The position numbers were made by a program, and so were the translations under genes. The notes under the pieces are model-generated. The model did not search any database. It had not been told where the DNA came from and saw only the letters and a list, made by a program, of their open reading frames with translations. From Minisyncoccota bacterium (lineage in GTDB: Bacteria > Patescibacteriota > Minisyncoccia > JAHIHE01 > JAGLIN01), in contig JAGLIM010000006.1 of assembly GCA_023142995.1 (NCBI GenBank), positions 32,577-96,576 of the forward strand: a DNA stretch of 64,000 bases, in the 5' to 3' direction. Below are positions 18,389-63,284 of the stretch, one piece after another. Positions within the stretch are counted from its first letter, which is position 1. Every line of letters starts with the position of its first letter.

Positions 18389-18423
18389 TTGATTTTTGAT
18401 AGTATTCAAGTATAATAAAAAGT

Positions 18424-19557: not shown

Positions 19558-19594
19558 GAAAAAGAAATTAAAAAATGAAAATTAGAAATATTGC

Positions 19595-19709: not shown

Positions 19710-19727
19710 TTTTGTAAAAATACAAGA

Positions 19728-20261: not shown

Positions 20262-20262
20262 T

Positions 20263-20544: not shown

Positions 20545-20572
20545 ATTGTTTAATAAACTAATAGAAAAAACA

Positions 20573-20902: not shown

Positions 20903-20929
20903 AGCAAAGTTTATAAAGTCATTAAGTTT

Positions 20930-26832: not shown

Positions 26833-27210
26833 ATGAAAAAAATAATTTCAACAGAAAAAGTTTCAGAAGTGGTAGGTCCATACTCGCAAGCAGTTGAAGC
26901 TGGTGGTTTTGTTTTTTTATCAGGACAAATTCCACTGAAAGTGGACGGAACTATAATTGATGGGGATATTAAAGATCAGACAAAACAAGTGCTTGATAAT
27001 ATCGGAGAAATTCTAAATGCATCTGGATTGAATTATGAAAATGTAGCAAAAGTTACAGTTTACCTTTCTGATATGAGTGATTTTAGAGAAATGAATGAAG
27101 TTTATATTAAATATTTTAAAAAAGATTTTCCTGCTAGGTCAACAATCCAAGTTTCTGAACTTCCAAAAGAAGTCGGCATAGAAATGGATGTGATTGCAGC
27201 GAAAGAATAA
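26833..27210 (+). CDS. ridA: RidA/YjgF-family reactive-intermediate deaminase.
   Basis: 125 aa. GPYSQAV...FLSGQIP...RSTIQV. Confidence 0.9.
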   Translation: MKKIISTEKVSEVVGPYSQAVEAGGFVFLSGQIPLKVDGTIIDGDIKDQTKQVLDNIGEILNASGLNYENVAKVTVYLSDMSDFREMNEVYIKYFKKDFPARSTIQVSELPKEVGIEMDVIAAKE

Positions 27211-30704: not shown

Positions 30705-33700
30705 TTGATTAGATATATAAAAAAACTAATCTTAACTAATATGAAAAACACAAAAACAAAACTATTCCTCCATCTTTTTATCTCAAGTTTCTTTTTGTTT
30801 GGGCTGGTGGGGGTTAGTGAAGCAGCCGATCACAACTGGTATTTCTCAATGTCAGGCGGTGGAAATGTTTGTTCTCAAGTCTCTCCATGCAAGTGGCTTT
30901 CATCAAACCAAGTCGGATATGTAGCAGGGCAAACAACAGCTCAAAACAAAATTGACAGCGTTGGTTCGGACAAGACTGTTAATTTGTATTTTAAGAGGGG
31001 GGATGTTTGGAGTTTTAATACGGATATGGTATCAACAAAAGTTTATTATGGATTACTTGTTAATAGTGATGATCCGACAGTTAATATAGATACTTATGGA
31101 TTAGGTGCAAAGCCGATATTTGACGGAACTGTAACAGATTTTAGTAGTGTACCAAATCACGATCATACCATTACCACAGGTCCGTATAAATGGAACAATA
31201 TTTTTCAATTTAATAGAAATGATTGTTCGGTTAAAAACATACATATAAATGGGATTTACGGGCAGGGTATAGTTCTTGGAGATGCGAGTAATGCTACGGA
31301 TAATTTTACTCTTGAAAGTTCTGATATAACTAATTTCGGTAATTGTGCTATTAGGTCAAGCTCAAAGTATGCAACACGAAACACTACTGTTACTAAAAAT
31401 TTGATACACACAGGACAACAGTTACAACTTTATGGTAAATGGCCCATCATGAATTGGGGTGCAGGGATTATGATAACTCCGCTAAACCATTTTCGTACCC
31501 CTTATGGGAATGTTATTAATTATAATGTCGTATATGACATAGCAGGCGAAGGGATTCATGCTTTTGGTACTACTATTGAGCATAACATTGTTGGTGATAC
31601 GGGTTCAGTTGGTATATTTGTTGCGCCTGATGCTGGGGACGCAACAGATACCATTGTTAGATATAACTTGGTTATAATGAGTGACCTTTTATCGTCTGAC
31701 TATGATAATGATGGTGCTATTGCACACGAAGGAATTGGAATCGCAGATGAAGGTTTTGGTGGGAGTAATGTAAATGCAATAGTAAAAGTTTATGGAAATA
31801 TAGTTATAAACCGGCTTAAAGGTATATTCTTTGCCGCTTATAATGGGAGCGTGGCACCTTGGAAAGAGATACATATTTATAATAATACCATTATTGATTC
31901 TTCGGGGGCTAATATGGTGATTTCAGAACCAGCCCACGACATGGTTGCTGTTGGAAAAGGGTTTATCTATAACAATACTTCCATTTTATACGATATAACG
32001 GGTAGTATTCATGTGGCAGATTGGAGCGATCCGCCAGCTTTAAGTACATATTGGACAATAGAAAACAATCACTTCTGGACAACAGGAGGATCTCCGACAG
32101 TAGATACAGATTGGCAAACCAACATGATCACCACCGACCCCCAACTTACAGGCGAACCTCTCATAGACTGGGACGGTCAATCAGGACCAACCTATTACAA
32201 AGACATTAAATTCAGCGATGTTATTCCCTTGGCAGGATCATCTCTAATCGGTTCAGGTAAAACGCTTGATGCTAGTTATAATAAAACATTTCTAACTCAA
32301 GGAACTGATTTTAGTGCATTACCTAATTTAACTAATTTCACGCTTTCATCCCAGACAGATGGTTCTTGGGATATAGGAGCGGTGGAGATGGCAGTTCCCG
32401 CCGACCACAACTGGTATTTCTCAATGTCAGGCGGTGGAAATGTTTGTTCCCAAGCGGCTCCCTGCAAATGGCTTTCATCAAACCAAGTCGGATATGTAGC
32501 AGGACAAACAACTGCTCAAGACAAAATTGACAGTATTGCTTCGGATAAGATAGTTAATTTGTATTTTAAGAGAGGGGATGTTTGGACGGCAGATACATCA
32601 GCGGTAAATAAAATAAATTGTCACGGACTTCTTGTTTCTGCGACTAACCCAATTATAAATATCAACGCATACGGTTCTGGCAATAAACCTGCTTTTGATG
32701 GTTTGGTTTCAGATTTTTCTACTGCTCCTGCTCATAACAGCACGACTGGGCCGTTGTTTTATAACAGATTTTTTGAGTTCAAGCGCAATAGTTGCAGTAT
32801 ATCAAATATAGAAATTAAAAGAGTTTATGGTAATGCTGTATTTTTAAACCCATCTAATTATTTTACGCTTGATTCTTGCAACATACATAACTTTGGCGCT
32901 GGCGGTATTTCAATATCGTCTGCAGTAGGTGGAAATAATATCACAGTTATAAACAACATTTTTCATACTGGACAAGAGCTATATAGATATGGTTTGCGAT
33001 CTGGATGGGAAGCCGCAATTCAATTAACAACAAAAGGTCATTTATGTGAAGATAATGTTATTAGATATAATGTTGTTTATGATATTTATGGAGAAGGAAT
33101 ACAGTGTGTTAATAGTTTATGCGAATATAATATTGTCGGAGATACAGGATCAATTGCTCTTAATACTTCTAATCATGGATGGGATGCTAAAAAAACTACA
33201 GTTAGATATAATATTGTAACGATGTCTGATTGGGGTTCAAGTATTTATGATACATTAAGTGGATCAAGTCCCGTAGGAGTAAGAGTTTATGACGAACATC
33301 CTGGTGGTAACAATTCAGGAGCAGATATACAAATCTATGGTAATATCATAATAAATACAAGGAACGGGATACAGCTTGGTTCACCAGAAGATCCGGGAAA
33401 TCCTTATGGTTCTGTAAAAATATATAATAATACTTTAGTGGACTGCATATCAAATTGGACTTTTTCACAACCGGAGGAATTTAGCAATGTGCATATTTAC
33501 AACAATTCATCTATTCATTATGACAGGACAGGCGCTCATTCTGTAAATTGGGATATAGCTGCCGGATATAGTGGCTGGGTATTTGACTATAACCATTTTT
33601 ATCCTGTCGATGGAAGTAATACAGTACTTCCCATTTTTGCTTCAAATCAAATCACCACCGACCCCAAACTCATTGGCGAACCAACAATAGACTGGGACGG

Positions 33701-34448
33701 TCAATCAGGAGCAACCTACTACAAAGATATTAAATTCAGCGATGTTATTCCATTAGCAACTTCATCTCTGATCGGTTCAGGTAAAACGCTTGACGCTAGT
33801 TATAATAAAACATTTCTAACTCAAGGAACTAACTTTGATACTCTACCAAACACTCCTAACTTTATGCTTTCATCTCAAACAGATGGTTCTTGGGATATAG
33901 GAGCGGTAGAAGTTGGAGGAGCTATTATTACCTGCGCTTCCCTCGGAGGCACCTGTTGCGCGCCATTTCAAATCTGCCAAGGAGGATCCGCAGCAACTTC
34001 ATCATGTAGTAATGTCTGTTGTGTTGGAGGAACTTGTCAAAATGTAGCTCCACCTCCACCTCCACCACCTCCAACTTGTCAAAGCCAAGGACATAAATGT
34101 TGTTTCTCTTGCCACACAGGACCTCATCCAATATATGATGGTGATTGTGTTGGTGAACGAATATGTTGTGATACTTGTCCTCCTCCTCCAAAAGCTAGTA
34201 TGAAAAACTTTATCTCAGTATTAAATTTCTCTAATCTCGTTGAAAACTTCTTAGTTTGGACACTATCTATTATCGGCTCTTTATCTCTTTTGATAATTGT
34301 TGTCGGAGGAGTGATGTATATTGGTTCTACTGGAGATGAACAAAGAATTGTCACAGCTAAAAGAGCTGTTACTTATGCTATAATAGGATTAGGATTAATT
34401 CTTAGCGCTTATGCTGTGATTATGGTGTTGGGAAAAGTGTTAAATTAA
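30705..34448 (+). CDS. Giant secreted protein. It contains two tandem roughly 525-aa beta-helix repeats, a Cys/Pro-rich module and a C-terminal double-TM tail.
   Basis: Signal peptide. ADHNWYFSMSGGGNVCSQ...IGAVE is duplicated at 30825 and 32400, with about 90% nucleotide identity at the repeat starts. The Cys-rich region reads CCAPFQICQGG...PPPPPPPPTCQ...CCDTCPPPP. The C-terminal TM-loop-TM tail reads VMYIGSTGDEQRIVTAKRAVTYAIIGLGL. Confidence 0.7.
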   Translation: MIRYIKKLILTNMKNTKTKLFLHLFISSFFLFGLVGVSEAADHNWYFSMSGGGNVCSQVSPCKWLSSNQVGYVAGQTTAQNKIDSVGSDKTVNLYFKRGDVWSFNTDMVSTKVYYGLLVNSDDPTVNIDTYGLGAKPIFDGTVTDFSSVPNHDHTITTGPYKWNNIFQFNRNDCSVKNIHINGIYGQGIVLGDASNATDNFTLESSDITNFGNCAIRSSSKYATRNTTVTKNLIHTGQQLQLYGKWPIMNWGAGIMITPLNHFRTPYGNVINYNVVYDIAGEGIHAFGTTIEHNIVGDTGSVGIFVAPDAGDATDTIVRYNLVIMSDLLSSDYDNDGAIAHEGIGIADEGFGGSNVNAIVKVYGNIVINRLKGIFFAAYNGSVAPWKEIHIYNNTIIDSSGANMVISEPAHDMVAVGKGFIYNNTSILYDITGSIHVADWSDPPALSTYWTIENNHFWTTGGSPTVDTDWQTNMITTDPQLTGEPLIDWDGQSGPTYYKDIKFSDVIPLAGSSLIGSGKTLDASYNKTFLTQGTDFSALPNLTNFTLSSQTDGSWDIGAVEMAVPADHNWYFSMSGGGNVCSQAAPCKWLSSNQVGYVAGQTTAQDKIDSIASDKIVNLYFKRGDVWTADTSAVNKINCHGLLVSATNPIININAYGSGNKPAFDGLVSDFSTAPAHNSTTGPLFYNRFFEFKRNSCSISNIEIKRVYGNAVFLNPSNYFTLDSCNIHNFGAGGISISSAVGGNNITVINNIFHTGQELYRYGLRSGWEAAIQLTTKGHLCEDNVIRYNVVYDIYGEGIQCVNSLCEYNIVGDTGSIALNTSNHGWDAKKTTVRYNIVTMSDWGSSIYDTLSGSSPVGVRVYDEHPGGNNSGADIQIYGNIIINTRNGIQLGSPEDPGNPYGSVKIYNNTLVDCISNWTFSQPEEFSNVHIYNNSSIHYDRTGAHSVNWDIAAGYSGWVFDYNHFYPVDGSNTVLPIFASNQITTDPKLIGEPTIDWDGQSGATYYKDIKFSDVIPLATSSLIGSGKTLDASYNKTFLTQGTNFDTLPNTPNFMLSSQTDGSWDIGAVEVGGAIITCASLGGTCCAPFQICQGGSAATSSCSNVCCVGGTCQNVAPPPPPPPPTCQSQGHKCCFSCHTGPHPIYDGDCVGERICCDTCPPPPKASMKNFISVLNFSNLVENFLVWTLSIIGSLSLLIIVVGGVMYIGSTGDEQRIVTAKRAVTYAIIGLGLILSAYAVIMVLGKVLN

Positions 34449-37235: not shown

Positions 37236-38366
37236 ATGCCAGATAAAAGTTATATTTATGCAGTTTCTACTATTATTGGTACTTCGGTAGGAGCTGGGAT
37301 TTTTAGTTTGCCATTTGTAGCGTCTAAATCGGGTTTTTTTCTTTTTGTTGTTCTTATTTTAGTTTTGGGATCTATTATGCTTCTTCTTAGTTTAATGTAC
37401 GCGGAAATTACTTTGAGGACCAAAAACAAAGGAAGACTAGTCGGTTATTGCGAGAAATACCTTGGAAAGGGAGGAAAAGAAATAGCAACGATTGTAACAC
37501 TGGTTGCTTTATACACTAGTATGCTGGCATTTATGATAATTGGAGGGAAGTTTTTAAATGCCATATTTTCTAATTATATCGGAGGAAATGAATTTATATA
37601 TAGCATTATAATGGCGTTGTTTATTTCAGTATGTATATATATAAATCTAAAAATTGTAAGTATCATAGAATTATCAATGGTCGCTTTTTTGTTCATTACT
37701 ATCTTTGTGATTATTTTCAAAGGAGCGTTCTTTGTTAATGTTGAAAATTTGTTAACTTTTAATATTACACAATCATTTTTTCCATTCGGTGCGATTCTCT
37801 TTTCTATAGGAGCTCTTTCTGCAATTCCGATGCTTGAGCATATAATGAAAAAGAATCAAAAGAAAATTAAAAGCGCGATAATTACAGGAAATGTAATTAC
37901 AATATTTATTTATATATTATTTGTGGCAGTTATTTTGGGTATTACTGGAGATGGAACTTCGCAAGAAGCACTTTATGGACTTGGTTTGATCATGAAAAAT
38001 GGCATAGTTCAAGTCGGTTTGATTTTTGGAGTTTTTGCTATTGCAACTTCTTTTCTTATAGTAGGTATAAATATAAAAGAAATATTTTGGTATGATTATC
38101 ACTTAAGCAAGAAAAAATCTTGGGCACTTGCCTGTTTTGTGCCATTTGCAGTTTTTATTTTAGGTTTTCGCGATTTTATAACTGTGGTTAGTGTGGCAGG
38201 AAGTATTACAGGTGGTTTTGCAGGAATTCTTATTATAATATCATTTTATAGAGCAAAAAAAATGGGAGATTTAAAACCAGCTTTTGAAATAAAAGTACCA
38301 AAGATATTATCAGTTTTTATGATTTCTATTTTGCTTTTAGGAATTGTTTGTCAATTTATCTATTAA
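37236..38366 (+). CDS. Amino-acid permease-like polytopic membrane transporter.
   Basis: About 11 TM helices. The N-terminus SYIYAVSTIIGTSVGAGIFSLP resembles the aromatic amino acid/APC permease family. Confidence 0.5.
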   Translation: MPDKSYIYAVSTIIGTSVGAGIFSLPFVASKSGFFLFVVLILVLGSIMLLLSLMYAEITLRTKNKGRLVGYCEKYLGKGGKEIATIVTLVALYTSMLAFMIIGGKFLNAIFSNYIGGNEFIYSIIMALFISVCIYINLKIVSIIELSMVAFLFITIFVIIFKGAFFVNVENLLTFNITQSFFPFGAILFSIGALSAIPMLEHIMKKNQKKIKSAIITGNVITIFIYILFVAVILGITGDGTSQEALYGLGLIMKNGIVQVGLIFGVFAIATSFLIVGINIKEIFWYDYHLSKKKSWALACFVPFAVFILGFRDFITVVSVAGSITGGFAGILIIISFYRAKKMGDLKPAFEIKVPKILSVFMISILLLGIVCQFIY

Positions 38367-38503: not shown

Positions 38504-38887
38504 ATGTTCGATAAAAAAACAAAAAACATTATCATTCTCTGGTTTCCAGTATTTATTTGTTGTGCAATTATCTATTATCTCTCTGCAATTCCAAATTTAA
38601 GATCAGATCTGCCAAATCAATGGGATTTTATTTTAAGAAAAATTGCGCATATGGCAGAATATGGGATTTTAACTGCTTTTATTTTTAGAGCTTATTTAAA
38701 AAGCAATGGATTTACAGTAAAAAAATCAATTTCTTTTGCAATAATATTTGCTCTAACCTATGCTTTTACCGATGAATATCATCAAACATTTGTTTTTGGC
38801 AGACAAGGCAGTTTAAATGACGTATTTATTGATAGTTTAGGTATATTTTTTATAGCGTTTCTAATTTACAAAAAAGTGAAAAAATGA
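38504..38887 (+). CDS. VanZ-like family membrane protein.
   Basis: ILRKIAHMAEYG...DEYHQTFVFGRQGSLNDVFIDSLG. Confidence 0.65.
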   Translation: MFDKKTKNIIILWFPVFICCAIIYYLSAIPNLRSDLPNQWDFILRKIAHMAEYGILTAFIFRAYLKSNGFTVKKSISFAIIFALTYAFTDEYHQTFVFGRQGSLNDVFIDSLGIFFIAFLIYKKVKK

Positions 38888-40744: not shown

Positions 40745-42325
40745 ATGCTAGATATATTAATAAAAAATGGAACCGTAATTGATGGAACTGGTTCAAAAAG
40801 TTCTATTGTTGATGTTGGGATAGAGAAAGAAAAGATAACTATTTTTGAAAAAACAAAAGAAGTTGAAGCAGGTGAGATCATAGATGCTACTGGAAAGATC
40901 GTTTGTCCAGGATTTATTGATATCCTTGATCATTCAGATAATTTTTGGACTATTTTTACAATACCTAGATTAGATAGTAAAGTCACAGATGGTGTAACAA
41001 CAATAATTGGTGGTAATTGTGGAACATCACTTGCTCCAATATTAGGTGAAGGTTCTATTGAATCTATGAGAAAATGGGTAGATATAGGGAACATAAATAT
41101 AAATTGGGACAGAATGAGTAGCTTATTCTCTGAATTGCATAAAAAAGATATAGGTCTTAATTTTGGAACTTTAGTTGGACATGAGACATTAAGGCGAGGA
41201 TTAATGGGAGATCAAATAAGAAAAATTACTGGAGATGAGATCAAAATGATCATGAGAGTGCTTTTAGAAAGCTTAGAAGATGGAGCTTTCGGATTATCTA
41301 CTGGACTTGTTTTTTCACATGCTCGTATGGCGACTATTGAAGAAATAAGGAGTATTGTACGAATATTAAAAGCTAGTAATTCTTTTTATGCGAGTCATAT
41401 TAGAGGTGAATCAGAAGAATTGTTACCTAGTGTCAATGAAACAATTCAAATTGGAAGACGGACAGGAGTACCAATTCAAATATCGCACTTAAAGGCCGTT
41501 GGAGAAAAATATTGGTCTGATATGCAAAAAGCTATAAAAATGATAGATATAGCTAATGAAGAAGGAATTGATATTAACTTTGATGTGTATCCATATGACA
41601 CTACCGGATCAGTATTATATATTCTGCTTCCTGATTGGGTTTCTCAAGGAGGTAGAAAGAAAATGATGCAAAGATTAAAAAATATGGAATTAAGAAATAA
41701 GATTATAAAAGAGATGAGAGGAATGAACTATGATTATAAAAATATTATTGTTTCTATATGTCCAAGACTTAAAGAAGCCGTTGGTAGAAAAATCACTGAT
41801 CTTGCTGTAAGTCAAGAAATTAGTCCAGAAGAGGCTATAATTGAATTATTAATTAGCGCAAATGGTCATGTAGTTGTGTTTAATGGGGGAATATTAAGTG
41901 AAGATAATATTAAGTTATCTTTGCAAAGTCCATATTCAATCATATCATCGGCAGATGCTGCATATAATACTGAATATGCAAGAACAGGAGAGCTTGTTCA
42001 TCCAAGATGTTTCGGAACTTTTTCTAGGGTTTTAGGAAGATATGTAAGAGAACAGAAGGTTTTAAGTTTAGAAAGCGCTATTAAGAAGATGACCTCTGAT
42101 CCAGCTAAAAAAATTGGACTAAAAAATAGAGGTATCTTAAAAAAAGATTTTTATGCAGATGTTGTTGTATTTGATGAAAATAAGATTATAGACAAAGCTA
42201 ATTTTGAAAATCCTTATCAATATTCTCAAGGTATTGAACATGTAATTATTAATGGAAAGTTAGTTATAAATAAAGGTAAGCATACGGGTGAGTTGGCGGG
42301 GAAGGTTTTAAAAAAGACAGGTTAG
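40745..42325 (+). CDS. N-acyl-D-amino-acid deacylase (D-aminoacylase) family amidohydrolase.
   Basis: The N-terminus IKNGTVIDGTGS...DATGKIVCPGFIDILDHSD is typical of the D-aminoacylase family. Confidence 0.7.
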   Translation: MLDILIKNGTVIDGTGSKSSIVDVGIEKEKITIFEKTKEVEAGEIIDATGKIVCPGFIDILDHSDNFWTIFTIPRLDSKVTDGVTTIIGGNCGTSLAPILGEGSIESMRKWVDIGNININWDRMSSLFSELHKKDIGLNFGTLVGHETLRRGLMGDQIRKITGDEIKMIMRVLLESLEDGAFGLSTGLVFSHARMATIEEIRSIVRILKASNSFYASHIRGESEELLPSVNETIQIGRRTGVPIQISHLKAVGEKYWSDMQKAIKMIDIANEEGIDINFDVYPYDTTGSVLYILLPDWVSQGGRKKMMQRLKNMELRNKIIKEMRGMNYDYKNIIVSICPRLKEAVGRKITDLAVSQEISPEEAIIELLISANGHVVVFNGGILSEDNIKLSLQSPYSIISSADAAYNTEYARTGELVHPRCFGTFSRVLGRYVREQKVLSLESAIKKMTSDPAKKIGLKNRGILKKDFYADVVVFDENKIIDKANFENPYQYSQGIEHVIINGKLVINKGKHTGELAGKVLKKTG

Positions 42326-42777: not shown

Positions 42778-43791
42778 ATGGATGATAGTGATAAGATAAA
42801 TAATATTATAGAAAATTTAAGAGAACAAGATCAGCAAAATTATGGTGTTGCTGTTTTTGATATTGATTCAAAAATTGTAAAAAACAGTATTGTAGTTTTT
42901 GGAAAAGTTTTAACGTATAGTCAGAAAGATCAAGTCTCAGAATTGGCAAAAAAACAAAAAATAAAAATTACTTCCGACAGAATAAAAGTTTTAAGTGATT
43001 CTAGCAAAAGATATGAAATCAATTGGGCTGTTGTAAAAGACGCAGTGACAGATCTGAAATTGCGATTTGTTTCTAATAGAATAGTAAATGAAAAAATATT
43101 AAAAAGGATCAGATGTTCACAGGCGTTTAAGGGTGAGATCTTGAGAGTTTTATATAAAAATGAAGATCAACTATTAGTCCAGCAGAATGATCTGACATTA
43201 GGATGGGTGGACAGAAAAGATGTGATTTTAAAGAAAATTAGCTCTTCCCATGATAAAGCCTGCCCTGAGCGAGAGTCGAATGGGGGGAGGTTGGGAGGGG
43301 TTAGAAAACGCAGAAAATTAGGTTTATATAAAAAATGGAAGAGCGGCAATTTTGTGATTAAAGGTAAAGTGATAATTGCAAAAAAGTTCCACAGCCCTAG
43401 CGGGACTATGGAACTAACATCTAAAATCATCAGAGAAGCAGAAAAATATATAGGTACAAAATATCTTCTTGGCGGGAAAACTAAAAATGGAATTGATTGT
43501 TCTGGATTAGTTCAAGTCGTTTATAAGAATTCTTTAAATATAATTTTACCAAAACATTCGTGGGATCAAAAAGAGATTGGAGAAAAGTTGAAATTAGAGA
43601 ATATAAAGACTGGTGATCTAGTATTTTTGATAAAAAAAAGCAACAAGCATAAGCATGTTGGAATTGTGAAAAAAAATAAAGATATAAATTTAATTCATGC
43701 TTCATTTGATAAAAAGAAAGTTGTTGAGCAAAACTTAGATAAAGTTTTTGAAAAATACGATTTTGTAGAAGTGAGGAGGATAGTGAAATAG
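42778..43791 (+). CDS. NlpC/P60-family cell-wall peptidase.
   Basis: The catalytic Cys is in GIDCSGLV, His in HVGIV and His in IHAS, in the C-terminal domain. There is a G-rich internal segment ESNGGRLGGV. Confidence 0.8.
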   Translation: MDDSDKINNIIENLREQDQQNYGVAVFDIDSKIVKNSIVVFGKVLTYSQKDQVSELAKKQKIKITSDRIKVLSDSSKRYEINWAVVKDAVTDLKLRFVSNRIVNEKILKRIRCSQAFKGEILRVLYKNEDQLLVQQNDLTLGWVDRKDVILKKISSSHDKACPERESNGGRLGGVRKRRKLGLYKKWKSGNFVIKGKVIIAKKFHSPSGTMELTSKIIREAEKYIGTKYLLGGKTKNGIDCSGLVQVVYKNSLNIILPKHSWDQKEIGEKLKLENIKTGDLVFLIKKSNKHKHVGIVKKNKDINLIHASFDKKKVVEQNLDKVFEKYDFVEVRRIVK

Positions 43792-43844: not shown

Positions 43845-44183
43845 TCAAAATCTTATGAGCGCAAGTTGTTCTTCAATTATTTCTATTTCGATAAAAGGAC
43901 TACCATATGTTCCTTTTAACAATAGTACTTTACCTTTTGAAATCTTTCTTGTAAATGCTTTGATCGTTTTATTGACCGATAGCTTTACTTTCATTCCGCC
44001 TTTTCTCATTTCAGCATTTTCAATAACAAATTCATCATTTTCTGTTATTATCTTTCCATTTGATATTTCTATTAGCGGATTCTTTCTGAGAACAAAAAAG
44101 TGACAGTTGTTTTCAGGTAGCTTTTCAGTAATAAATTCTAGAGCGTCCATTACTGTTTTTAGGTCAATTTTTATTTCATACAT
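43845..44183 (-). CDS. Hypothetical 112-aa protein.
   Basis: The only sizeable minus-strand ORF in the dcw region. No recognisable motif. Confidence 0.35.
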   Translation of the reverse strand: MYEIKIDLKTVMDALEFITEKLPENNCHFFVLRKNPLIEISNGKIITENDEFVIENAEMRKGGMKVKLSVNKTIKAFTRKISKGKVLLLKGTYGSPFIEIEIIEEQLALIRF

Positions 44184-44228: not shown

Positions 44229-45764
44229 ATGTCAATATCAAATCAACTCAATCAATACAAGAATAAAAACATTCATATTGTCGGGATCGGTGGGGCGGAG
44301 GGAAGTGCAATCGCGGAGTTTTTAGTGTCTCAGGGAGTCTCTTCGGTCACTGGACATGATTTTTCTTCTAAAGCGGATTTCAAAAAAACTTTTTATAATA
44401 CTCATTTAAGTCTAAAACCAAAAGAAAGAGAAGGAGCATTAGATCATCTTTTGGATTTGCCTATTAGAATGAATTTTAAAGGTCATTATTTGGAAGGAAT
44501 TGACCAAGCGGATATGGTTTTTGTTTCGCAAGTTTGGTTTAAATACCCGCAAAATATGCCGATTTTAGAGAATTTGAAAGATAATGGAGTTCCATTCAAG
44601 ACTATTACTAATTTATATTTTGAACTAGCGCCATGTCCCATTATTTCTGTAACAGGAACAAACGGCAAGACAACGACAGCGAGATTAATCAATAGTATTT
44701 TTAATGCTTGGGGGGTTAAAGTCTTTTTCGCTGGGAACGATCGTCAAAATGTTCAGGTTCTAAATAGGCTTAATGAAATGAAAAAAGAAGATATTTTAAT
44801 TCTTGAAACAAGTAGTACTCAACTATTATTAAACTCTGAAATAAGTCCGTATATTGGAGTTATCACAAATATTACACCTAATCATATTGATGATCATGGC
44901 AGTTTTGAAAATTATATTGAAGCAAAAAAGAATTTGATTAGGTATCAAAAGAAAGGGGATTTTGCGGTTTTAAACGAAAAGTTGAAAGTTTATAAAGTAC
45001 ATAAAGCTATAAAGTCAAGGATATTTTGGTTTAGTGGAAAAAAAGAGTTGGAAGAAGGGTGTTTTGTAAAAAATGGGAAGATTATGATAAGAGAAAATGA
45101 TAAATGCAGGTTTGCAAAAAATCTCCACATCAACACACCCCTAGCCCCTCTCAAGAGGGGAATCGAGATAATGAAGCCAGCAATTGTTTGTAATATAGAT
45201 GATATAAAAATTCCAGGCAAGCATAATCTTGAAAATGTTTTATCGGCAGTTTCTGTTACTTATCTTTATGGTGTAGATTCGAAAATAATAAAAAAAGGCA
45301 TATCAGAATATACCGGTATAAAGCATAGATTAAAACTTCTTTACAATATAGATAGAATCAAATATTATGATGATACACAAGCTACCACTCCTGAGGCGAC
45401 AATTGCGGGTATTGGTTCTTTTGATGGTGATATAATATTGCTTGCAGGTGGAGATAATAAGGGAATGAATTATAAAGAATTGGCGGAGAAAATTAATGAT
45501 AAAGTGAAATTTCTGATGTTATTTTCTGGTAATGCTTCAGATGAAATTGAAGAGTTGATTGATAAAGATAAAGTAGATTTTATAAGAGTGAAAGATTTTG
45601 CTAATGCAATTGAAGAATTAAAAAAATATTATAAAAAAACTGATCCTATAAAAAACGGTACAGTCTTAATTTCTCCCGCGGCAGCTTATTTTTATTCAAA
45701 ATTTGTAGAAAATTCGGGAAAGAGTTTAAGAGAATGGATCAAATCAGTATCTAGTATCAAGTAG
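44229..45764 (+). CDS. murD: Mur ligase, probably MurD (UDP-MurNAc-L-Ala:D-Glu ligase). It contains an in-frame partial repeat element.
   Basis: ISVTGTNGKTTT P-loop, HNLENVLSAV and GGDNKGMNY. It sits after mraY. The segment NLHINTPLAPLKRGIEIM is encoded by a repeat-element fragment at about 45106-45175. Confidence 0.7.
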   Translation: MSISNQLNQYKNKNIHIVGIGGAEGSAIAEFLVSQGVSSVTGHDFSSKADFKKTFYNTHLSLKPKEREGALDHLLDLPIRMNFKGHYLEGIDQADMVFVSQVWFKYPQNMPILENLKDNGVPFKTITNLYFELAPCPIISVTGTNGKTTTARLINSIFNAWGVKVFFAGNDRQNVQVLNRLNEMKKEDILILETSSTQLLLNSEISPYIGVITNITPNHIDDHGSFENYIEAKKNLIRYQKKGDFAVLNEKLKVYKVHKAIKSRIFWFSGKKELEEGCFVKNGKIMIRENDKCRFAKNLHINTPLAPLKRGIEIMKPAIVCNIDDIKIPGKHNLENVLSAVSVTYLYGVDSKIIKKGISEYTGIKHRLKLLYNIDRIKYYDDTQATTPEATIAGIGSFDGDIILLAGGDNKGMNYKELAEKINDKVKFLMLFSGNASDEIEELIDKDKVDFIRVKDFANAIEELKKYYKKTDPIKNGTVLISPAAAYFYSKFVENSGKSLREWIKSVSSIK

Positions 45765-45831
45765 TAAGTATTAAGCAAAATTAGTATTAAATATCAGGCT
45801 TGATACTTAATACTAGCTACTTAATACTAAT

Positions 45832-45984
45832 TTATTTTTCCTCTTCAATAAGTTCCAATTCAACTGGATCTGTTGAGATAACTTCGTGTTCTGCTCCACA
45901 GGCAGAACAAACTAAAACATCTCCTATATCTGGCATTTCTTCGTCAATTGGAATTGGAGCTCCGCAATCTTGGCAATTTGTCAT
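45832..45984 (-). CDS. LysW-like zinc-ribbon peptide with an acidic C-terminal tail (50 aa). It is not in the provided ORF track.
   Basis: MTNCQDCGAPIPIDEEMPDIGDVLVCSACGAEHEVISTDPVELELIEEEK. It has the CxxCGA...GD..xCxxCGAE.EV...DP.ELE..EEE pattern of amino-group carrier proteins. Confidence 0.5.
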   Translation of the reverse strand: MTNCQDCGAPIPIDEEMPDIGDVLVCSACGAEHEVISTDPVELELIEEEK

Positions 45985-46066
45985 ATGTTTGGCTTAATTA
46001 TTAATTTTACTTAAATTATAGTTTATTATAGAAAATATGCAATATCTTAGATTAAAATAATTTTAA

Positions 46067-47113
46067 ATGTCAAACTTTCAAAATAAAATCAATAAAAATA
46101 AAAAAGGCATCTGGCGATATGCTGATTTTTATGATGAGTTTGTAAAACAGGAGAATAGATTAAGTTTAGACAGCAATGAAAGCAGAGATTCTGTAGGTGC
46201 TAAGCACCTACAGAATATGAAGAATTTATATTTTAAGCGAGAAGATGAGAATAAGTGTGGGTCGTTGAAAGAGAGAAGTCTTGCTTATCAAGTTTCACTT
46301 GCCAAGCAAAGCAAAAAGAAAGAATTAGTGATTTCAACTTCTGGTAATGCAGGGATCGCAGCAGCAGCATATTGCCAGAAAACTGGAATAAAATTATATA
46401 TTTTTGTATCTCCTGAAACTGAAAAAGCAAAAATTGTGGAGATGCAAAAATATAATCCAATAATAATAAAATCGTTTCGAGCAATGCGATTGGCAAACTA
46501 CTTAGCGGCAAAGTATAAAATAGAAAATCTAAGACCATCTCTTAATAATTCATCAATAGAAGGATTTAAGTCAATCGCATTTGAAATATTTGAAGATTTA
46601 GGCGAGGTGGACGCGGTTTTTACATATGTTACAAGTGGAAGTTCGTTTATTGGAATTGGTAGGGCATATAAATATCTTTTAGAAAGTAGTGAAATTAAAA
46701 AATTGCCAAAACTATTTACTGTTCAGAGCGGAGAGATATTTTCTATTGCATCTGAATTTGAAGAAATTCAAAAACAAAGATCAATAGCTGGTAGGTTAGG
46801 AGTAAAAAATACTAGACGGAAAAAAGAAATTTTAGAATTAATAAAACTAAGTGGTGGAAGTGGGATATATGTGAGTGACGAAGAAATTGATAAAGCTAAA
46901 AACATTTTAGAAAATAATAATATTTATACCTCTTTTGAAGGTTGCGCGAGTTTTGCGGGAATAAAAACTGTGACTGAAAAAAATAAATTTAATAAAGTTG
47001 TTTGTATTCTTTCGGGGAAGCTTAGAGAAAAAACTGATAAAATTGATGAAAGTAGGATCTATAAAGCAGAGAATTTTGAAGAAGTGGATGAAATAGTTGA
47101 GTTAAAAAAATAA
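46067..47113 (+). CDS. PLP-dependent fold-type II enzyme (threonine synthase / serine racemase / dehydratase superfamily).
   Basis: FKREDENKCGSLKERS, which is the (F/L)KxEdxNptGSFKdR PLP-lysine motif. Also a glycine-rich SGNAGIAAAAY. Confidence 0.7.
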   Translation: MSNFQNKINKNKKGIWRYADFYDEFVKQENRLSLDSNESRDSVGAKHLQNMKNLYFKREDENKCGSLKERSLAYQVSLAKQSKKKELVISTSGNAGIAAAAYCQKTGIKLYIFVSPETEKAKIVEMQKYNPIIIKSFRAMRLANYLAAKYKIENLRPSLNNSSIEGFKSIAFEIFEDLGEVDAVFTYVTSGSSFIGIGRAYKYLLESSEIKKLPKLFTVQSGEIFSIASEFEEIQKQRSIAGRLGVKNTRRKKEILELIKLSGGSGIYVSDEEIDKAKNILENNNIYTSFEGCASFAGIKTVTEKNKFNKVVCILSGKLREKTDKIDESRIYKAENFEEVDEIVELKK

Positions 47114-47273
47114 AATAGAAAATAATAGATTAGAATATTAAATCATAAATCCAAAATTATAAATTCCAAATAAATCCAAAATTCAAATGTTCAAAATTTT
47201 AAACTGTTTTTGATTTTGGTTATTGTAATTTATTTGTTATTTGATATTTTGAATTTGTAATTTAATTAATAAG

Positions 47274-48653
47274 ATGACCAGTAATTATAAAAAAAATAAA
47301 AAATTACTAAATGCCAAACAGGTTGGTTCTATATTTTTTGTTACTCCAAATCCGAATCGTGGTATTGGACTTGAAGAAGAAATAAAAGACTACCATATAA
47401 TATGTTCACAGAAGACTGATCTGGTTGATTGTTTAAAAAATGAAAAAATATCTATTTTATGTCTTGACGATGATAATATAAAAAGTTCAGGAAAATTGTT
47501 AGAGAGTAAAAAAGTTCTAGATTATATAAAAAAGCAGTCAAAACAAAAAACAGCAAATATAATTACTTTTAAACCAAGTCCAAAAATTCATAAAATTTGT
47601 AAAGATAATGGTTTTAGGTATTTAGGAAATGATTGGAGATTAAACAGAAAACTTGAAGATAAAGTTGAGTTTGTAGATATAACCAATAGATTAAAGATCC
47701 CAAATGCAAAAAGCAGGATAATCAAAATAGAGGATCAGGAAAGATTTAAGGATAAATTCAATTTTAAGAATAAAAATAAGTATGTTATCCAACTTCCAAG
47801 AGGATATTCAGGGAATTCTACTTTTTTAATTGAGAATAAAAATGATCTAGAAAAGATAGTTGAAAAATATGAAAATAGGATTGTTAAATTTTCAAAGTAC
47901 ATAGAAGGTGATGCTTATACTCTTAATGTTTGTGTTGGAAACTTTGGCATAGTTGTAAGCCAACTAATCTATCAGATCACAGGTTTGACTTTATTCAATA
48001 AGAATCAACTTGGAACTTCTGGGAATGATTACGTATATAGCGAAAGATTAAGTAGTATCGAAAAGAAAAGGATATTTAATTACACAAAAAAAATAGGTAA
48101 ATATATGGCGCAGTTAGGATATCAAGGAATTTTTGGTCTTGATCTTATAATTGATAAAAATGATGTTAATCTAATAGAGATTAATCCAAGATTTGTTGGT
48201 TCAATTCCAGCGTTTACAAAGCTTCAACTTCAAAATCAAGAAGTATCTTTTTTATTCTTACATCTATCTGAGTTTTTGGGTCTCAATGTCGATTCAGAAC
48301 TATTACTAGAAGATCTTTCTTATGAGAAATGGAACAAACAGAATATTTTTAGTTTTTCTCAATTAGTTTTAAGAAATACTAAAGATGTTCCAATAAAAAT
48401 CGTAGAACCAATGGTATCTGGTGTTTATAAATTCGATCAGGATAAGTTGATTTTGAAAAACAAAACTTATAATTTTAAGAATTTGAATGATAAAGAAGTT
48501 CTAGTTCAATGTTTAAAGAAAAATAGTATTGTAAGTCCTGATACAGAATATGCTAATATTCAATTTGGATATGGTATAATAGAACATAATCATATTAAAA
48601 AAGAATATAAAAAAATAGTTGAAACGATATTAAATAATATACAGTTAAAATAA
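47274..48653 (+). CDS. ATP-grasp carboxylate-amine ligase-like protein.
   Basis: ATP-grasp core LIEINPRFVGS plus upstream YVIQLPRGYSGNSTFLI. There is an N-terminal extension of about 150 aa. Confidence 0.65.
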   Translation: MTSNYKKNKKLLNAKQVGSIFFVTPNPNRGIGLEEEIKDYHIICSQKTDLVDCLKNEKISILCLDDDNIKSSGKLLESKKVLDYIKKQSKQKTANIITFKPSPKIHKICKDNGFRYLGNDWRLNRKLEDKVEFVDITNRLKIPNAKSRIIKIEDQERFKDKFNFKNKNKYVIQLPRGYSGNSTFLIENKNDLEKIVEKYENRIVKFSKYIEGDAYTLNVCVGNFGIVVSQLIYQITGLTLFNKNQLGTSGNDYVYSERLSSIEKKRIFNYTKKIGKYMAQLGYQGIFGLDLIIDKNDVNLIEINPRFVGSIPAFTKLQLQNQEVSFLFLHLSEFLGLNVDSELLLEDLSYEKWNKQNIFSFSQLVLRNTKDVPIKIVEPMVSGVYKFDQDKLILKNKTYNFKNLNDKEVLVQCLKKNSIVSPDTEYANIQFGYGIIEHNHIKKEYKKIVETILNNIQLK

Positions 48654-48664
48654 TCATATTTTCT

Positions 48665-49762
48665 ATGAGATTAAAAGGTGTAGATAAAACTCTTCTGATC
48701 ACAGTCATTGCTTTGTCTGTTTTTGGTTTAATAGTAATATCAAGCGCTAGTGTTGTTATGAGTTATAATAATTTTGGTTATAACCACTATTATTTATCTC
48801 ATCAATTCTTGTATGGTTTTTTGCCAGGTATTTTATTATTATTTCTTGTTCAAAAAATTGATTACAGAATATTAAAGAAATATGCTTTTTTATTTTTAAT
48901 AATAACTCTATTATTATTGGTAATAGTTTTTATTCCAGGACTTGGTTATGGTCTAAAAGGTGCAGACAGGTGGATAGTTATTGCTGGAATAAGTATTCAG
49001 CCATCAGAGTTTATAAAATTGATTTTTATATTATATCTTGCGGCATGGCTTGAAAAAAGGAAAAAAGATAAACAAAACTTTTCAAAATCGTTGATTCCTT
49101 TTGTTGTTATAATCTTAGTTATATCATTTCCTTTAATAATGCAGCCAGACATAGGAACATTAAGTATTATCATACTTACTGCTGTGATAATGTATTTTAT
49201 GTCTGGAATGAAAATTAGTCATATTTTTATTCTTGCTAGTGGCGGAATTATGGGATTATTATTGTTGATTAAAATTGCGCCATATAGAATGAATAGATTT
49301 ATGGTATTTTTACATCCAGAATTAGATCCTCAGGGAATTGGATATCAAATCAATCAAGCATTACTAGCCATTGGTTCTGGCGGGTTCTTTGGACTTGGCT
49401 TTGGCAGAAGTAGGCAAAAGTTCAATTATCTTCCAGAATCTATTGGTGATTCAATTTTTGCAATAACTGGAGAAGAGTTGGGTTTTATCGGATTATTCGT
49501 TCTTTTGACATTGTTTTTGATATTTGCTTTGAGAGGGTATAAAATAGCGAGTAAAGCGCCAGATGATTTTGGAAAATTAGTTGCAGTGGGAATTACCTCA
49601 TGGATTATTTTTCAGGCATTTATGAATATAGCTGCTATTACCTCATTGATTCCTCTGACTGGTATTCCTTTGCCTTTTATCAGCTATGGTGGATCAGCTT
49701 TGATCACATCTTTGATTGGGTGTGGAATTTTACTTAGTATCTCAAAATATAGTAGAAATTAG
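48665..49762 (+). CDS. ftsW: FtsW/RodA (SEDS) family protein.
   Basis: RWIVIAGISIQPSEFIKLIFI and 9-10 TM helices. Confidence 0.85.
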   Translation: MRLKGVDKTLLITVIALSVFGLIVISSASVVMSYNNFGYNHYYLSHQFLYGFLPGILLLFLVQKIDYRILKKYAFLFLIITLLLLVIVFIPGLGYGLKGADRWIVIAGISIQPSEFIKLIFILYLAAWLEKRKKDKQNFSKSLIPFVVIILVISFPLIMQPDIGTLSIIILTAVIMYFMSGMKISHIFILASGGIMGLLLLIKIAPYRMNRFMVFLHPELDPQGIGYQINQALLAIGSGGFFGLGFGRSRQKFNYLPESIGDSIFAITGEELGFIGLFVLLTLFLIFALRGYKIASKAPDDFGKLVAVGITSWIIFQAFMNIAAITSLIPLTGIPLPFISYGGSALITSLIGCGILLSISKYSRN

Positions 49763-62378: not shown

Positions 62379-63284
62379 ATGCAAATAGTAATAATACGAA
62401 ATTTTGATTTTACGCCAAAGCAAATAGAACGCTTAAAGAAATTAGGCGATGTTAAATTTTATGGTGACTCTCCTATTACCAAAGAAGAATGGTTAAATAT
62501 AGCGAAAGAAGCGGATATTATTTGTAGTGGAAATTTTGGCTTAAAATATAACTTAAATAAATTAAAAAATGTTTTTATAACATATCCCTTTGTTGCTCTT
62601 GATGGTATTAATATTGAACAGTTGAAAAGAAATAATATTACATTGGCAAATAGTCCTGGTTGTAATAAAGATGCTGTGTCAGAATGGGTTATATCTATGA
62701 TCTTAAATTTATTTAGAAAATTTCCCCAGTTTATTAAAAATAATAATTTGCCAAAAGGTGAGATGCCAGAAATAACACAGAGTATTAAAAATAAAAATAT
62801 AACTATTTTAGGAAAAGGTAATATTGGATCAAGAGTTGGTAAATTATGCGAAACTTTTGGAATGAATATTGTATTTTTTGAAAGAGGAGATAATTTATTA
62901 GAGAAGGTTAAGAATGCGGATATGATAGTTAATTGTTTGAGTCCAAACGAAGGCACGGTTAATTTGCTAAATAAAAATTTCTTTTTCTCTTTAAAAAAAG
63001 ATTCTTATTTTATAACTTTTACAAAAAAAGAAATATATAATTCTGATGCAATGATAGAAGCTTTGGATAAAAATATTTTAAGCGGAGTTGCTGATGATTG
63101 TGCAAGTGAAATAGTTGGAGATATTTATAATGATTATTATCAAAAATTATTAAAGCACAAAAAGATTTTAGTAACTCCGCATATTGCGTGGAGCGCTGAT
63201 AGTTCTATCTACAATGGAAATGAAATGGTTATTGATAATATTGAAGCGTGGATAAATGGATGTCCGCAAAATCTGATTGAATAA
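62379..63284 (+). CDS. D-isomer-specific 2-hydroxyacid dehydrogenase family (NAD-binding).
   Basis: ITILGKGNIGSRVGKL Rossmann motif and C-terminal VTPHIAWS. Confidence 0.8.
   Translation: MQIVIIRNFDFTPKQIERLKKLGDVKFYGDSPITKEEWLNIAKEADIICSGNFGLKYNLNKLKNVFITYPFVALDGINIEQLKRNNITLANSPGCNKDAVSEWVISMILNLFRKFPQFIKNNNLPKGEMPEITQSIKNKNITILGKGNIGSRVGKLCETFGMNIVFFERGDNLLEKVKNADMIVNCLSPNEGTVNLLNKNFFFSLKKDSYFITFTKKEIYNSDAMIEALDKNILSGVADDCASEIVGDIYNDYYQKLLKHKKILVTPHIAWSADSSIYNGNEMVIDNIEAWINGCPQNLIE

Follow-up and report, generated by a model that had tools for sequence, protein, structure and literature searches.

The dcw cluster in the 64-kb stretch of DNA analysed here (the window) raises the question of what is contributed by three genes that lie between murD and ftsW. 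The open reading frames named for this interval in the original prediction were reproduced, with exactly the same coordinates, by a mechanical ORF list, and the locus is organised as follows.

40745-42325, plus strand: Amidohydro_3 amidohydrolase of 526 aa, an accessory neighbour (PF07969, 79 bits)
42778-43791, plus strand: NlpC/P60 cysteine peptidase/amidase of 337 aa, predicted to be cytoplasmic, a putative release enzyme (NLPC_P60, 72 bits)
44229-45764, plus strand: murD, UDP-MurNAc-L-Ala--D-Glu ligase, the usual upstream neighbour of the triad (TIGR01087, 261.7 bits; cut-off 212)
45832-45984, minus strand: LysW-fold zinc-ribbon peptide of 50 aa, a putative carrier, MTNCQDCGAPIPIDEEMPDIGDVLVCSACGAEHEVISTDPVELELIEEEK (ORF list, Pfam)
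45985-46066, no strand: intergenic spacer of 82 bp between the divergent peptide and PALP genes
46067-47113, plus strand: ThrC-like fold-type-II PLP enzyme of 348 aa, containing FKREDENKCGSLKER (ORF list, Pfam PALP)
47274-48653, plus strand: ATP-grasp carboxylate-amine ligase of 459 aa, containing EINPRFVGS, of an uncharacterised family (ATP-grasp_3)
48665-49762, plus strand: ftsW, downstream operon partner of the triad (TIGR02614, 380 bits)

The searched literature provided no description of this module, which is a conserved, so far undescribed gene set inside the cell-wall and division operon of many Patescibacteria, which are ultra-small cells. The three genes had been proposed to form a linked unit within the dcw cluster, and their synteny in related genomes bears this out; the divergent arrangement of peptide (minus), PALP (plus) and ATP-grasp (plus) is found again at 49 of the 57 PALP/ATP-grasp pairs that could be assessed, and both enzymes were found at 7/7 independently retrieved, peptide-centred loci. 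At the remaining 8/57 pairs the peptide gene is absent within ~10 kb, so the genes need not be adjacent, or else these loci can do without the peptide. The triad ranges over the Parcubacteria, Microgenomates, Wirthbacteria, Peribacteria and a 68%-GC MAG labelled as Chloroflexota, holding together down to ~30% ATP-grasp identity and across a GC span of 31-68%. It almost always adjoins murD or mraY, or stands between mraY and ftsW in the place of murD; murD is the immediate upstream neighbour of the peptide gene in Parcubacteria, Gottesmanbacteria, Wirthbacteria, Peribacteria and at loci L030, L033, L038 and L043, and several Microgenomates clusters have no murD nearby. Such conservation of synteny over dozens of lineages excludes chance placement within the dcw cluster. 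The gap between the PALP and ATP-grasp genes has a median of 0, with many overlaps of 4-13 nt, the distance from the ATP-grasp stop to the ftsW start has a median of -4 nt (38 loci), and one case of in-frame PALP-ATP-grasp read-through (P0042) was encountered. Judged from this spacing, the triad is translationally coupled to ftsW-murG. Promoter-like hexamer pairs, identified by consensus match only, number five over both strands of the 82-bp spacer compared to 3.4 expected from shuffling, and an Rfam search of the spacer returned no family match.

The description of the small protein as LysW-like was confirmed with Pfam and the PDB. It matches PF21344 (Zn_ribbon_LysW) with 37.8 bits (cut-off 27; E = 1.4e-9), and its best match among PDB sequences is the LysW of Thermus (3wwl, E = 4.5e-8), with 5k2m_E also recovered (E = 3e-4); the alignment with 3wwl ends ahead of the LysW tail. 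It scores under the cut-offs of both LysW equivalog models (TIGR01206, 37.5 vs 53.2 bits; NF041070, 29.6 vs 75 bits). The ORF is conserved in relatives as a protein of 49-56 aa with both CxxC pairs, in 52/86 sources and 467 database clusters; both pairs are present in the window peptide, and the four Cys residues are invariant. The window peptide ends in ...LIEEEK and, as had been noted, this terminus is unlike that of LysW: EEK closes 51/52 locus copies (DEK the other 1/52) and 115 of the best 120 database clusters. The terminal Lys is conserved above either Glu, and EEK as strongly as the zinc ligands; a widespread EEKG variant retains the Lys side chain but loses its free alpha-carboxylate. 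Among relatives, invariant residues use several synonymous codons and the final Lys precedes all three stop codons. The peptide is very acidic (net charge -13.5). With EEK in place of an EDWGE-type tail ending in Glu, which is not present, a terminal Glu gamma-carboxylate is unavailable, and given the strong conservation of EEK, the original suggestion of a different attachment chemistry is reasonable. On these comparisons the peptide is classed as a LysW-fold paralogue and not a canonical LysW; that it serves as a covalent carrier has even chances in our estimation.

The PLP enzyme matches PF00291 (PALP) with 149 bits, and scores under the cut-off of every ThrC model (best, PRK05638, 136 vs 421 bits; TIGR00260, 74.9 vs 167.1 bits). 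A Foldseek search with its AF2 model (pLDDT 90.6) placed ThrC structures at the top (E ~1e-21), ahead of dehydratases and Ser/Asp racemases, and the nearest relatives by sequence and structure are the ThrC entries 2zsj, 6cgq/6nmx and 1v7c. The Schiff-base Lys (K68) and the SGN carboxylate loop are invariant within the family, and the PLP-phosphate loop is conserved. The ThrC motifs were compared using four solved ThrCs, all of which carry NPxR(I/L)EGQKT and GNT, motifs that we take to bind the phosphate of O-phosphohomoserine, with the NPxR Arg as the presumed phosphate-binding residue. ThrC NSVNPxR(I/L)EGQKT aligns to LRPSxDxSxxGF of the family and GNT to GNA; the NPxR Arg has not been kept in the family, where R156, another Arg, is invariant. 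The enzyme thus appears as a divergent, ThrC-derived fold-II protein with a remodelled anion-binding site, not a canonical ThrC, and nearly all relatives have it linked to the ligase.

The ligase matches PF02655 (ATP-grasp_3) with 45.9 bits (cut-off 23.2). K130, D290, E302, N304 and R306 are invariant, and both the E-x-N-x-R motif and the ATP-binding Lys are present; with its catalytic residues intact, the enzyme is active-looking. Its AF2 model (pLDDT 92.7) adopts an ATP-grasp fold with an extra beta-rich C-terminal region. A profile search of PDB sequences yielded weak local matches, none extending past the catalytic loop, while the structural neighbours of the model are amine-acylating ligases including PylC and BesA, together with L-amino-acid ligases, PGM1 and 8ynd. 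Identity to the PylC, BesA, PGM1-type and L-amino-acid ligases is 9-16%. The ligase does not closely resemble MdnC/PsnB/CdnC, RimK or TTL in structure, the protein lies outside the LysX/ArgX (RimK-type) ATP-grasp family, and no Asl-type D-aspartate ligase appeared among its NCBIfam matches at E <= 0.01. Orthology to Ddl, PurK or PurT was ruled out.

A fourth conserved member of the module is recognised in the NlpC/P60 protein. The PF00877 match (72 bits) is accompanied by a GIDCSGL motif, with the conserved Cys, in both long and short forms of the protein; the long form occurs in 14 triad loci, and the short GIDCSGL form in 29 Microgenomates loci and in 6/7 of the peptide-centred loci. By a simple hydropathy test, the window protein has neither signal peptide nor TM segment (maximum KD19 hydrophobicity 1.14), and its relatives remain below 1.6 apart from artefacts of ORF-start choice, on which grounds it is predicted to be cytoplasmic. 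The amidohydrolase is less widely associated, being limited to six triad loci and specific to those of the Parcubacteria type; no TM segment was seen in it, and its best NCBIfam match (PRK09061, 'amidohydrolase family protein', 197 bits) is under the cut-off of 340. It is likely that the triad and NlpC/P60 are functionally coupled and together serve peptidoglycan synthesis in many Patescibacteria.

The probable task of the module is to produce a wall-specific amino acid on a carrier protein or to attach one there. In the form that we put forward, which we rate a little short of even, it would be a load-modify-release carrier pathway for peptidoglycan synthesis with a chemistry unlike that of LysW systems. 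The acidic zinc-ribbon protein would offer its flexible ...E-E-K tail, and the ATP-grasp enzyme would activate a carboxylate and ligate an amino acid to it, most plausibly at the epsilon-amine of the terminal Lys. Attachment there would leave the alpha-amino-acid end of the substrate free, and the ThrC-derived PLP enzyme could then modify this end, alpha-epimerisation being the simplest option, before the NlpC/P60 amidase frees the product for the stem peptide. We infer the covalent loading, together with the atom of attachment, the kind of amino acid, its epimerisation and its release by NlpC/P60. NlpC/P60 enzymes normally cut gamma-D-Glu on the alpha-amine of a diamino acid and not on Lys N-epsilon. 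That usual linkage differs from the Lys N-epsilon linkage proposed for the release step. The basic pI of the enzymes is common to neighbouring proteins, and so it is no specific evidence for carrier binding.

Public pipelines (NCBI, JGI) name relatives of these proteins 'lysine biosynthesis protein LysW' and 'threonine synthase', and a PF21344 score above cut-off could seem to agree; a LysW for the alpha-aminoadipate route to lysine or arginine and a housekeeping threonine synthase would then share the dcw cluster by chance. These names are misnomers, and the probability of this reading is negligible. It is refuted by the membership tests, as the LysW equivalog models and all ThrC models are under cut-off, the tail is EEK and not EDWGE, and the NPxR motif of ThrC is lost; the synteny described above rules out chance placement. 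Neither the window nor the most frequent families in the locus census included a LysX-type ligase or LysZ/Y/J/K-type domains, and LysZ/LysY/LysJ/LysK-type genes are absent from the window Pfam annotations, as had been stated, and from the called genes of L001-L005 and L086-L092. Another proposal, that the ligase stands in for a missing Ddl, can be extended to a replacement of the D-Ala branch, with a non-orthologous D-Ala-D-X ligase and, in the PLP enzyme, a non-orthologous Ala/Ser racemase taking the place of Ddl and Alr. The absence of ddl from the window was correctly noted (ddl, alr, murI, murE and murF were all missing from its 64 kb by Pfam annotation and motif search, a stretch too short to speak for the genome), Shapirobacteria-type loci likewise have no ddl anywhere in their complete cluster from mraW to ftsZ, and Ddl is itself an ATP-grasp enzyme. 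A canonical Ddl (Pfam E = 6e-63), however, is clustered with the triad in L028, L032 and L035 and also present in L091, the ligase has no match to the Dala_Dala_lig Pfam domains, and the peptide and NlpC/P60 would be left unused. Through this co-occurrence the replacement is largely refuted and must be considered very improbable; the original interpretation is thus supported in part.

Two further readings retain a place for the ligase in the modification of cell-wall precursors or of the peptide itself. The ATP-grasp enzyme might add an amino acid directly to a peptidoglycan precursor, such as a side-chain or cross-bridge residue at position 3 (cf. the D-aspartate ligase Aslfm of Enterococcus), with the PLP enzyme supplying the amino acid as, for example, a fold-II racemase or by beta-replacement. 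The EEK protein would then be no carrier but would have an accessory, scaffolding or regulatory role, with a ...Glu-Lys tail that imitates iGlu-Lys as found in the stem peptide. Enterococcus and Lactococcus offer an established case, an ATP-grasp ligase paired with a racemase to build a D-Asp cross-bridge. The operon shared with ftsW-murG and the adjacency of murD or mraY fit this proposal, as do the amino-acid and peptide ligases (L-amino-acid ligases, PGM1, 8ynd) in the fold clade of the ligase, the Ser and Asp racemases among the fold-II relatives, and the eight loci with only the enzyme pair. It is nevertheless doubtful; it leaves unexplained both a LysW-fold protein with a conserved terminus at 49/57 plus 7/7 loci and a conserved cytoplasmic NlpC/P60, and the ligase showed no similarity to a characterised stem-peptide ligase among NCBIfam and PDB references that contain no Aslfm. 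Alternatively, the small protein could be the end product or target of a C-terminal modification cycle in which the ATP-grasp enzyme adds, and the papain-like NlpC/P60 removes, a residue or cross-link on ...EEK, thereby regulating division or wall synthesis, in the manner of tubulin tyrosination by TTL/vasohibin, RimK or RiPP-like maturation. A conserved terminus with variants such as EEKG, the pairing of an ATP-grasp enzyme with a papain-fold peptidase and the operon with ftsW would suit such a cycle, but no role is left in it for the PLP enzyme, which is better conserved than the ligase (55-85% vs 42-84% identity in close relatives), and the peptide is a structured LysW-like domain with no leader/core organisation. 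It is accordingly given a low probability, below that of direct tailoring.

Returning to the load-modify-release pathway, a specific guess as to its cargo is that L-Glu would be loaded via its gamma-carboxyl, epimerised, and freed as D-Glu for the adjacent MurD. Only one triad-less Patescibacteria dcw locus was recovered (L077), and it carries a bona fide murI directly upstream of murD, followed by ftsW; its murD is far more canonical (395 bits vs 262 and 186). No MurI or Alr motif was detected in any triad locus, and the apparent complementarity of murI and triad is that of the single locus L077. A racemase has no obvious need of a carrier, and we know of no PLP-dependent fold-II glutamate racemase. 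D-Glu as the product is considered unlikely. In the broadest form of this proposal, a wall-specific D-amino acid, most likely the D-Glu of MurD, would be made on a LysW-fold protein across much of the CPR, and a gamma-D-glutamyl-specific NlpC/P60 would free the D-form only; this, too, we hold to be improbable to the same degree. If true, it would amount to an ATP-driven, one-way stereochemical ratchet replacing glutamate racemase, and to a new 'carboxyl-group carrier' use for the LysW fold.

Of the known routes to D-Glu, those involving MurI and MurD2/MurL share with the triad a position adjacent to murD, which murI occupies in L077; MurI has no sequence or fold relation to the module proteins, and its functional equivalence to them is hypothetical. 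ThrC and the fold-II racemases and dehydratases have the Schiff-base Lys, SGN loop and PLP-phosphate loop in common with the module enzyme, which differs from ThrC in having no threonine-pathway neighbours and in always being paired with an ATP-grasp protein. The closest relatives of the peptide in fold are the LysW/ArgW proteins that act with LysX/ArgX (Thermus, Sulfolobus, Thermococcus) and AmCP of Streptomyces. LysW/ArgW are likewise small, very acidic proteins with a conserved C-terminal tail, encoded adjacent to an ATP-grasp ligase and a possible release hydrolase. The LysW tail, ...EDWGE, carries its substrate on the Glu gamma-carboxylate, whereas that of the module peptide is a short ...E-E-K; modification by LysZ/Y/J and release by the M20 hydrolase LysK contrast with a PLP fold-II enzyme and a putative NlpC/P60 release enzyme, and the context is amino-acid biosynthesis in the one and peptidoglycan and division in the other. 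In butirosin biosynthesis, a carrier (BtrI), an ATP-grasp enzyme (BtrJ) and a PLP enzyme (BtrK) function together; Glu is loaded by its gamma-carboxyl and the PLP enzyme acts on the free alpha-amino-acid end. By analogy, the module would combine the same three kinds of component under the same logic, for which LysW/LysX/LysK is a further precedent. In the Btr system the substrate is joined by a thioester to a phosphopantetheinylated ACP, while the putative module carrier, a zinc ribbon, has no Ppant site, for which reason an amide to Lys is proposed; BtrK, a decarboxylase, belongs to another PLP fold. Finally, the E-x-N-x-R motif and ATP-binding Lys of the ligase are shared with PylC, BesA, and the PGM1-type and L-amino-acid ligases; PylC acylates the epsilon-amine of Lys, and BesA, a gamma-Glu ligase, activates the gamma-carboxyl of Glu, which are the two reactions that the carrier model would require.

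The original prediction had placed a LysW-like insert of three genes between murD and ftsW in the dcw cluster, and its three open reading frames were found at the same coordinates in the ORF list:

45832-45984, minus strand: 50-aa peptide, a LysW-fold zinc ribbon
46067-47113, plus strand: 348-aa ThrC-like fold-II PLP enzyme (PALP)
47274-48653, plus strand: 459-aa ATP-grasp ligase

The window has a GC content of ~31% and encodes a protein with 100% identity to P0241, a protein of a 'Candidatus Pacebacteria' MAG, which places the source within the Patescibacteria (CPR). The gene order is VanZ, mraY, PsbP-like, Amidohydro_3, small TM protein, NlpC/P60 and murD, followed by the peptide gene (minus strand), PALP, ATP-grasp, ftsW, murG, murC, a CBM protein and murB. 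Genes for ddl, alr, murI, murE and murF were not found within these 64 kb, a span too short to provide evidence about the content of the whole genome. Neither a 112-aa ORF between NlpC/P60 and murD (43845-44183, minus strand) nor a 93-aa gene called at the same position in a related locus (L001) was conserved. No Rfam family matched in 45500-47400, and promoter-like matches scarcely exceeded the expectation from shuffled sequence. A perfect 13-bp inverted repeat with a 3-nt loop within the PALP coding sequence (46188-46216), listed as terminator-like by the minus-strand scan, may be due to chance.

Conservation of this arrangement was assessed by scanning one genome per species with the family alignment, which yielded 80 loci; together with five further loci, these were annotated using phmmer and HMMs of the window proteins. 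Synteny, which the original prediction proposed to test, is conserved, the full divergent triad being present in 49 of the 85 loci. Another 8 encode PALP and ATP-grasp with no peptide gene in the flank, 11 are cut off upstream, and 17 carry ATP-grasp without an adjacent PALP gene; most of these last are stand-alone paralogues at a greater distance, in unrelated contexts where examined. In L003, a locus without murD and the peptide gene, an IS1595-family transposase (5344-6159) just 5' of PALP suggests that a mobile element broke the cluster there. Contigs with the triad are labeled Parcubacteria/Paceibacterota, Moraniibacteriota, Wirthbacteria, Peribacteria, Microgenomates, Gottesman-, Shapiro- and Woesebacteria, and include a 68%-GC MAG labeled Chloroflexota. 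Many contigs with Shapirobacteria-, Gottesmanbacteria- or Parcubacteria-type dcw clusters are titled 'uncultured Gammaproteobacteria bacterium' or 'uncultured Candidatus Saccharibacteria' (suspect loci L045, L047-L050, L053, L058, L061, L062, L069, L072, L074, L075, L080, L082, L083); these TPA assemblies appear to carry wrong taxon labels, and many MAG contig labels are unreliable.

Independent retrieval through the peptide recovered both PALP (E <= 1e-40) and ATP-grasp (E <= 1e-66) in all seven loci. The median gaps, 0 nt from PALP to ATP-grasp and -4 nt from ATP-grasp to ftsW, with overlaps of 4-14 nt being common, indicate a single translationally coupled operon; PALP-ATP-grasp read-through was seen only once (P0042). 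An NlpC/P60-like cysteine peptidase constitutes a fourth conserved member: 14 triad loci have it in a long form and 29 in a short one, and the short form also occurs in six of the seven peptide-centered loci. No signal peptide or TM segment was detected in it by hydropathy, and the peptidase is predicted to be cytoplasmic. Given its strong conservation inside the dcw operon, this four-gene module probably has an important part in the wall synthesis or division of the lineages that carry it.

The peptide proved to be LysW-like at the level of fold, passing Pfam Zn_ribbon_LysW (37.8 bits against a cut-off of 27), but it failed the curated LysW equivalogs TIGR01206 (37.5 against 53.2) and NF041070 (29.6 against 75). 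Its best matches among solved structures are the LysW proteins of Thermus (E = 4.5e-8) and Thermococcus; the likeness spans the globular domain, and where LysW has the tail ...PAPEEAEDWGE, the peptide has a shorter ...LIEEEK. Copies from the window and the first 85 loci end in EEK (51/52) or DEK (1/52), and the best 120 of 467 database clusters of relatives end in EEK (115), DEK (3), ETK (1) or EEKG (1). When 1.8 billion representatives were searched exhaustively with a profile, the wider LysW-like superfamily showed many tails (EDWGE, acidic/aromatic) and tandem domains. The best-scoring subfamily keeps the terminal Lys, as EEK, ETK, EQK, VEK, IEK, DEK, EDK, SEK or AEK, indicating that conservation is stronger at the Lys than at either Glu; in the widespread EEKG variant the side chain of the Lys is kept and its free alpha-carboxylate is lost. 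Several synonymous codons at invariant residues, and the occurrence of TAA, TAG and TGA after the Lys, point to protein-level selection on the peptide ORF. No enzyme fusion was found among the peptide relatives in the database clusters. The superfamily also holds many uncharacterized classes (P0361-P0506), among them tandem proteins of two or three domains and single domains whose long acidic tails end in W, Y or WGE, which suggests further carrier-like systems beyond Lys/Arg biosynthesis.

PALP is nearest to the threonine synthases by sequence (2zsj, 78 bits), by profile and by predicted structure (pLDDT 90.6; Foldseek E ~1e-21), yet falls far below the cut-offs of all ThrC models. Neither the Schiff-base Lys (K68) nor the SGN loop varies among 60 family members. 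The NSVNPxR(I/L)EGQKT of all four solved ThrCs compared, in which the Arg of NPxR binds the substrate phosphate, aligns to LRPSxDxSxxGF in the PALP family, and the GNT of ThrC is GNA. The enzyme is thus ThrC-derived and, with these conserved motifs lost, is probably not a threonine synthase.

The ATP-grasp protein (confidently predicted structure, pLDDT 92.7) has an invariant ATP-binding Lys and an E-x-N-x-R motif. Solved proteins match it at the profile level only locally and weakly, and it belongs to an uncharacterized family that is neither Ddl nor LysX. Its homologs (127 matches) are confined to Patescibacteria-type metagenome proteins; the distant paralogs L025, L034 and L040, at 25-32% identity, stand-alone and in sugar or unrelated contexts, were set aside. 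The structural neighborhood of the ligase includes PylC, which acylates the epsilon-amine of lysine, and BesA, which activates the gamma-carboxyl of glutamate.

With respect to the Mur pathway, Parcubacteria, Gottesmanbacteria, Wirthbacteria, Peribacteria and several unassigned MAGs have murD directly 5' of the peptide gene, the two genes converging. The Shapiro/Woese cluster runs mraW, ftsI, murE, ATE_C-like, murC, murA, mraY, NlpC-like, triad, ftsW, murG, ftsA, ftsZ, and loci of the L028 type run murC, murB, murA, ddl, murF, mraY, NlpC-like, triad, ftsW, murG, such that in the latter the module takes the place where murD canonically lies. Only one Patescibacteria dcw locus without the triad was recovered, the Saccharibacteria-type L077; it has murI directly 5' of murD-ftsW-murG (16534-20969, minus strand), and its glutamate racemase is bona fide (TIGR00067, 194 bits against 147). 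On TIGR01087 its MurD scores 395 bits, compared with 262 (window) and 186 (L044) for triad-adjacent MurDs, which are markedly divergent. No MurI or Alr motif was found in any triad locus (~20 kb per genome); the complementarity of murI and triad, resting on one locus and ~20 kb per genome, is suggestive.

Between murE and murC, Microgenomates dcw clusters encode a protein of ~200 aa:

L063, 4013-4606, plus strand: ~200-aa murE-murC protein
L086, 11404-12003, minus strand: ~200-aa murE-murC protein
L087, 10195-10800, minus strand: ~200-aa murE-murC protein
L088, 11449-12060, minus strand: ~200-aa murE-murC protein

In L063 and L087 it weakly resembles the arginyl-tRNA-protein transferase C-terminal domain (ATE_C), a Fem/GNAT-like fold, and it may be a tRNA-dependent aminoacyl transferase adding a branch residue to the stem peptide. 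In a divergent Patescibacteria lineage (L004, 2344-3723, plus strand), a fold-III PLP decarboxylase, matching arginine and diaminopimelate decarboxylase models best and all below cut-off, lies directly 5' of murD and the triad. Within the window, a VanZ-family gene (38504-38887) lies directly 5' of mraY, with a Trp/Tyr-permease-family amino-acid transporter (37236-38366) upstream of it. Between mraY and NlpC/P60 (40080-42685) are the PsbP-like protein, a 526-aa Amidohydro_3 protein without a TM segment and a 106-aa membrane protein; the amidohydrolase, seen again in only six triad loci (five Parcubacteria-type and L043), could serve as a deacylase with N-acyl or peptide-bound D-amino acids as its substrates. 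RidA enzymes quench aminoacrylate set free by fold-II PLP enzymes, and a RidA homolog (Ribonuc_L-PSP, enamine/imine deaminase) is encoded at 26833-27210; at ~19 kb from the PALP gene, no linkage is claimed. A D-isomer-specific 2-hydroxyacid dehydrogenase (62379-63284) weakly resembles VanH-type D-lactate dehydrogenase (E ~2e-11, far below cut-off). Two very large proteins, one of 1247 aa (30705-34448; beta-helix, C-terminal T4SS-pilin-like domain) and one of 1263 aa (956-4747; Big_5/Big_12 repeats, C-terminal peptidoglycan-binding domain), are probably surface-located. The window further encodes an ELP3-like radical-SAM protein (25045-26742, minus strand) and a 433-aa ORF (13387-14688, plus strand) with a sub-threshold integrase-core (rve_3) match, which may be a mobile-element remnant.

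We infer that the module may perform carrier-protein-assisted amino-acid chemistry on a LysW scaffold. Fold-II PLP enzymes require substrates whose alpha-amino group and carboxylate are both free, and the SGN loop that binds the carboxylate is conserved here; a carrier-bound substrate would therefore be tethered through its side-chain carboxylate to an amine, presumably that of the conserved Lys, since the tail has no other. As there is just one modifying enzyme, alpha-epimerization would be the simplest chemistry and, with murD as the habitual neighbor, D-Glu the simplest product. Specificity for gamma-D-glutamyl is typical of NlpC/P60 enzymes, and the peptidase would release the product stereoselectively. 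Basicity of the enzymes was discarded as evidence of carrier binding, since MurD, FtsW and MurG are also basic in these AT-rich genomes.

Competing with this carrier reading are two others, in which the stem peptide is tailored directly and the small protein is an accessory, or the small protein itself undergoes a cycle of modification. Replacement of the D-Ala branch is unlikely: the hint in the original prediction that the ligase might stand in for Ddl is removed by the co-occurrence of module and canonical Ddl in L028, L032, L035 and L091. The public names, 'lysine biosynthesis protein LysW' for the peptide, 'threonine synthase' or 'pyridoxal-phosphate dependent enzyme' for PALP and 'ATP-grasp domain-containing protein' for the ligase, offer a literal reading as LysW plus threonine synthase, which is refuted by the failed LysW equivalog and ThrC models. 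The first two are mis-names, carried by hundreds of database entries, and cause predictions to overstate the amino-acid biosynthetic capacity of CPR genomes.

Patescibacteria, almost entirely uncultured and minimal in their metabolism, account for a large part of bacterial diversity, and we know of no established source of unusual wall amino acids in them. A full-text literature search found no description of the module, and the Lipocone paper, the Minisyncoccus description and the Patescibacteria perspective held nothing relevant to it. By analogy, the conserved set of acidic LysW-fold protein with a constant terminus, carboxylate-amine ligase, PLP enzyme and cytoplasmic amidase matches the load-modify-release logic of the LysW pathways, and it also fits that of the BtrI/J/K system; its terminus, partner enzymes and biological context would be new. 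If the carrier reading is true, LysW-type chemistry would be extended from an amino-group tether on a terminal Glu to attachment via a terminal Lys, the partners of LysW-type carriers would come to include a new ligase family and a PLP enzyme, and carrier chemistry would be linked to peptidoglycan for the first time.
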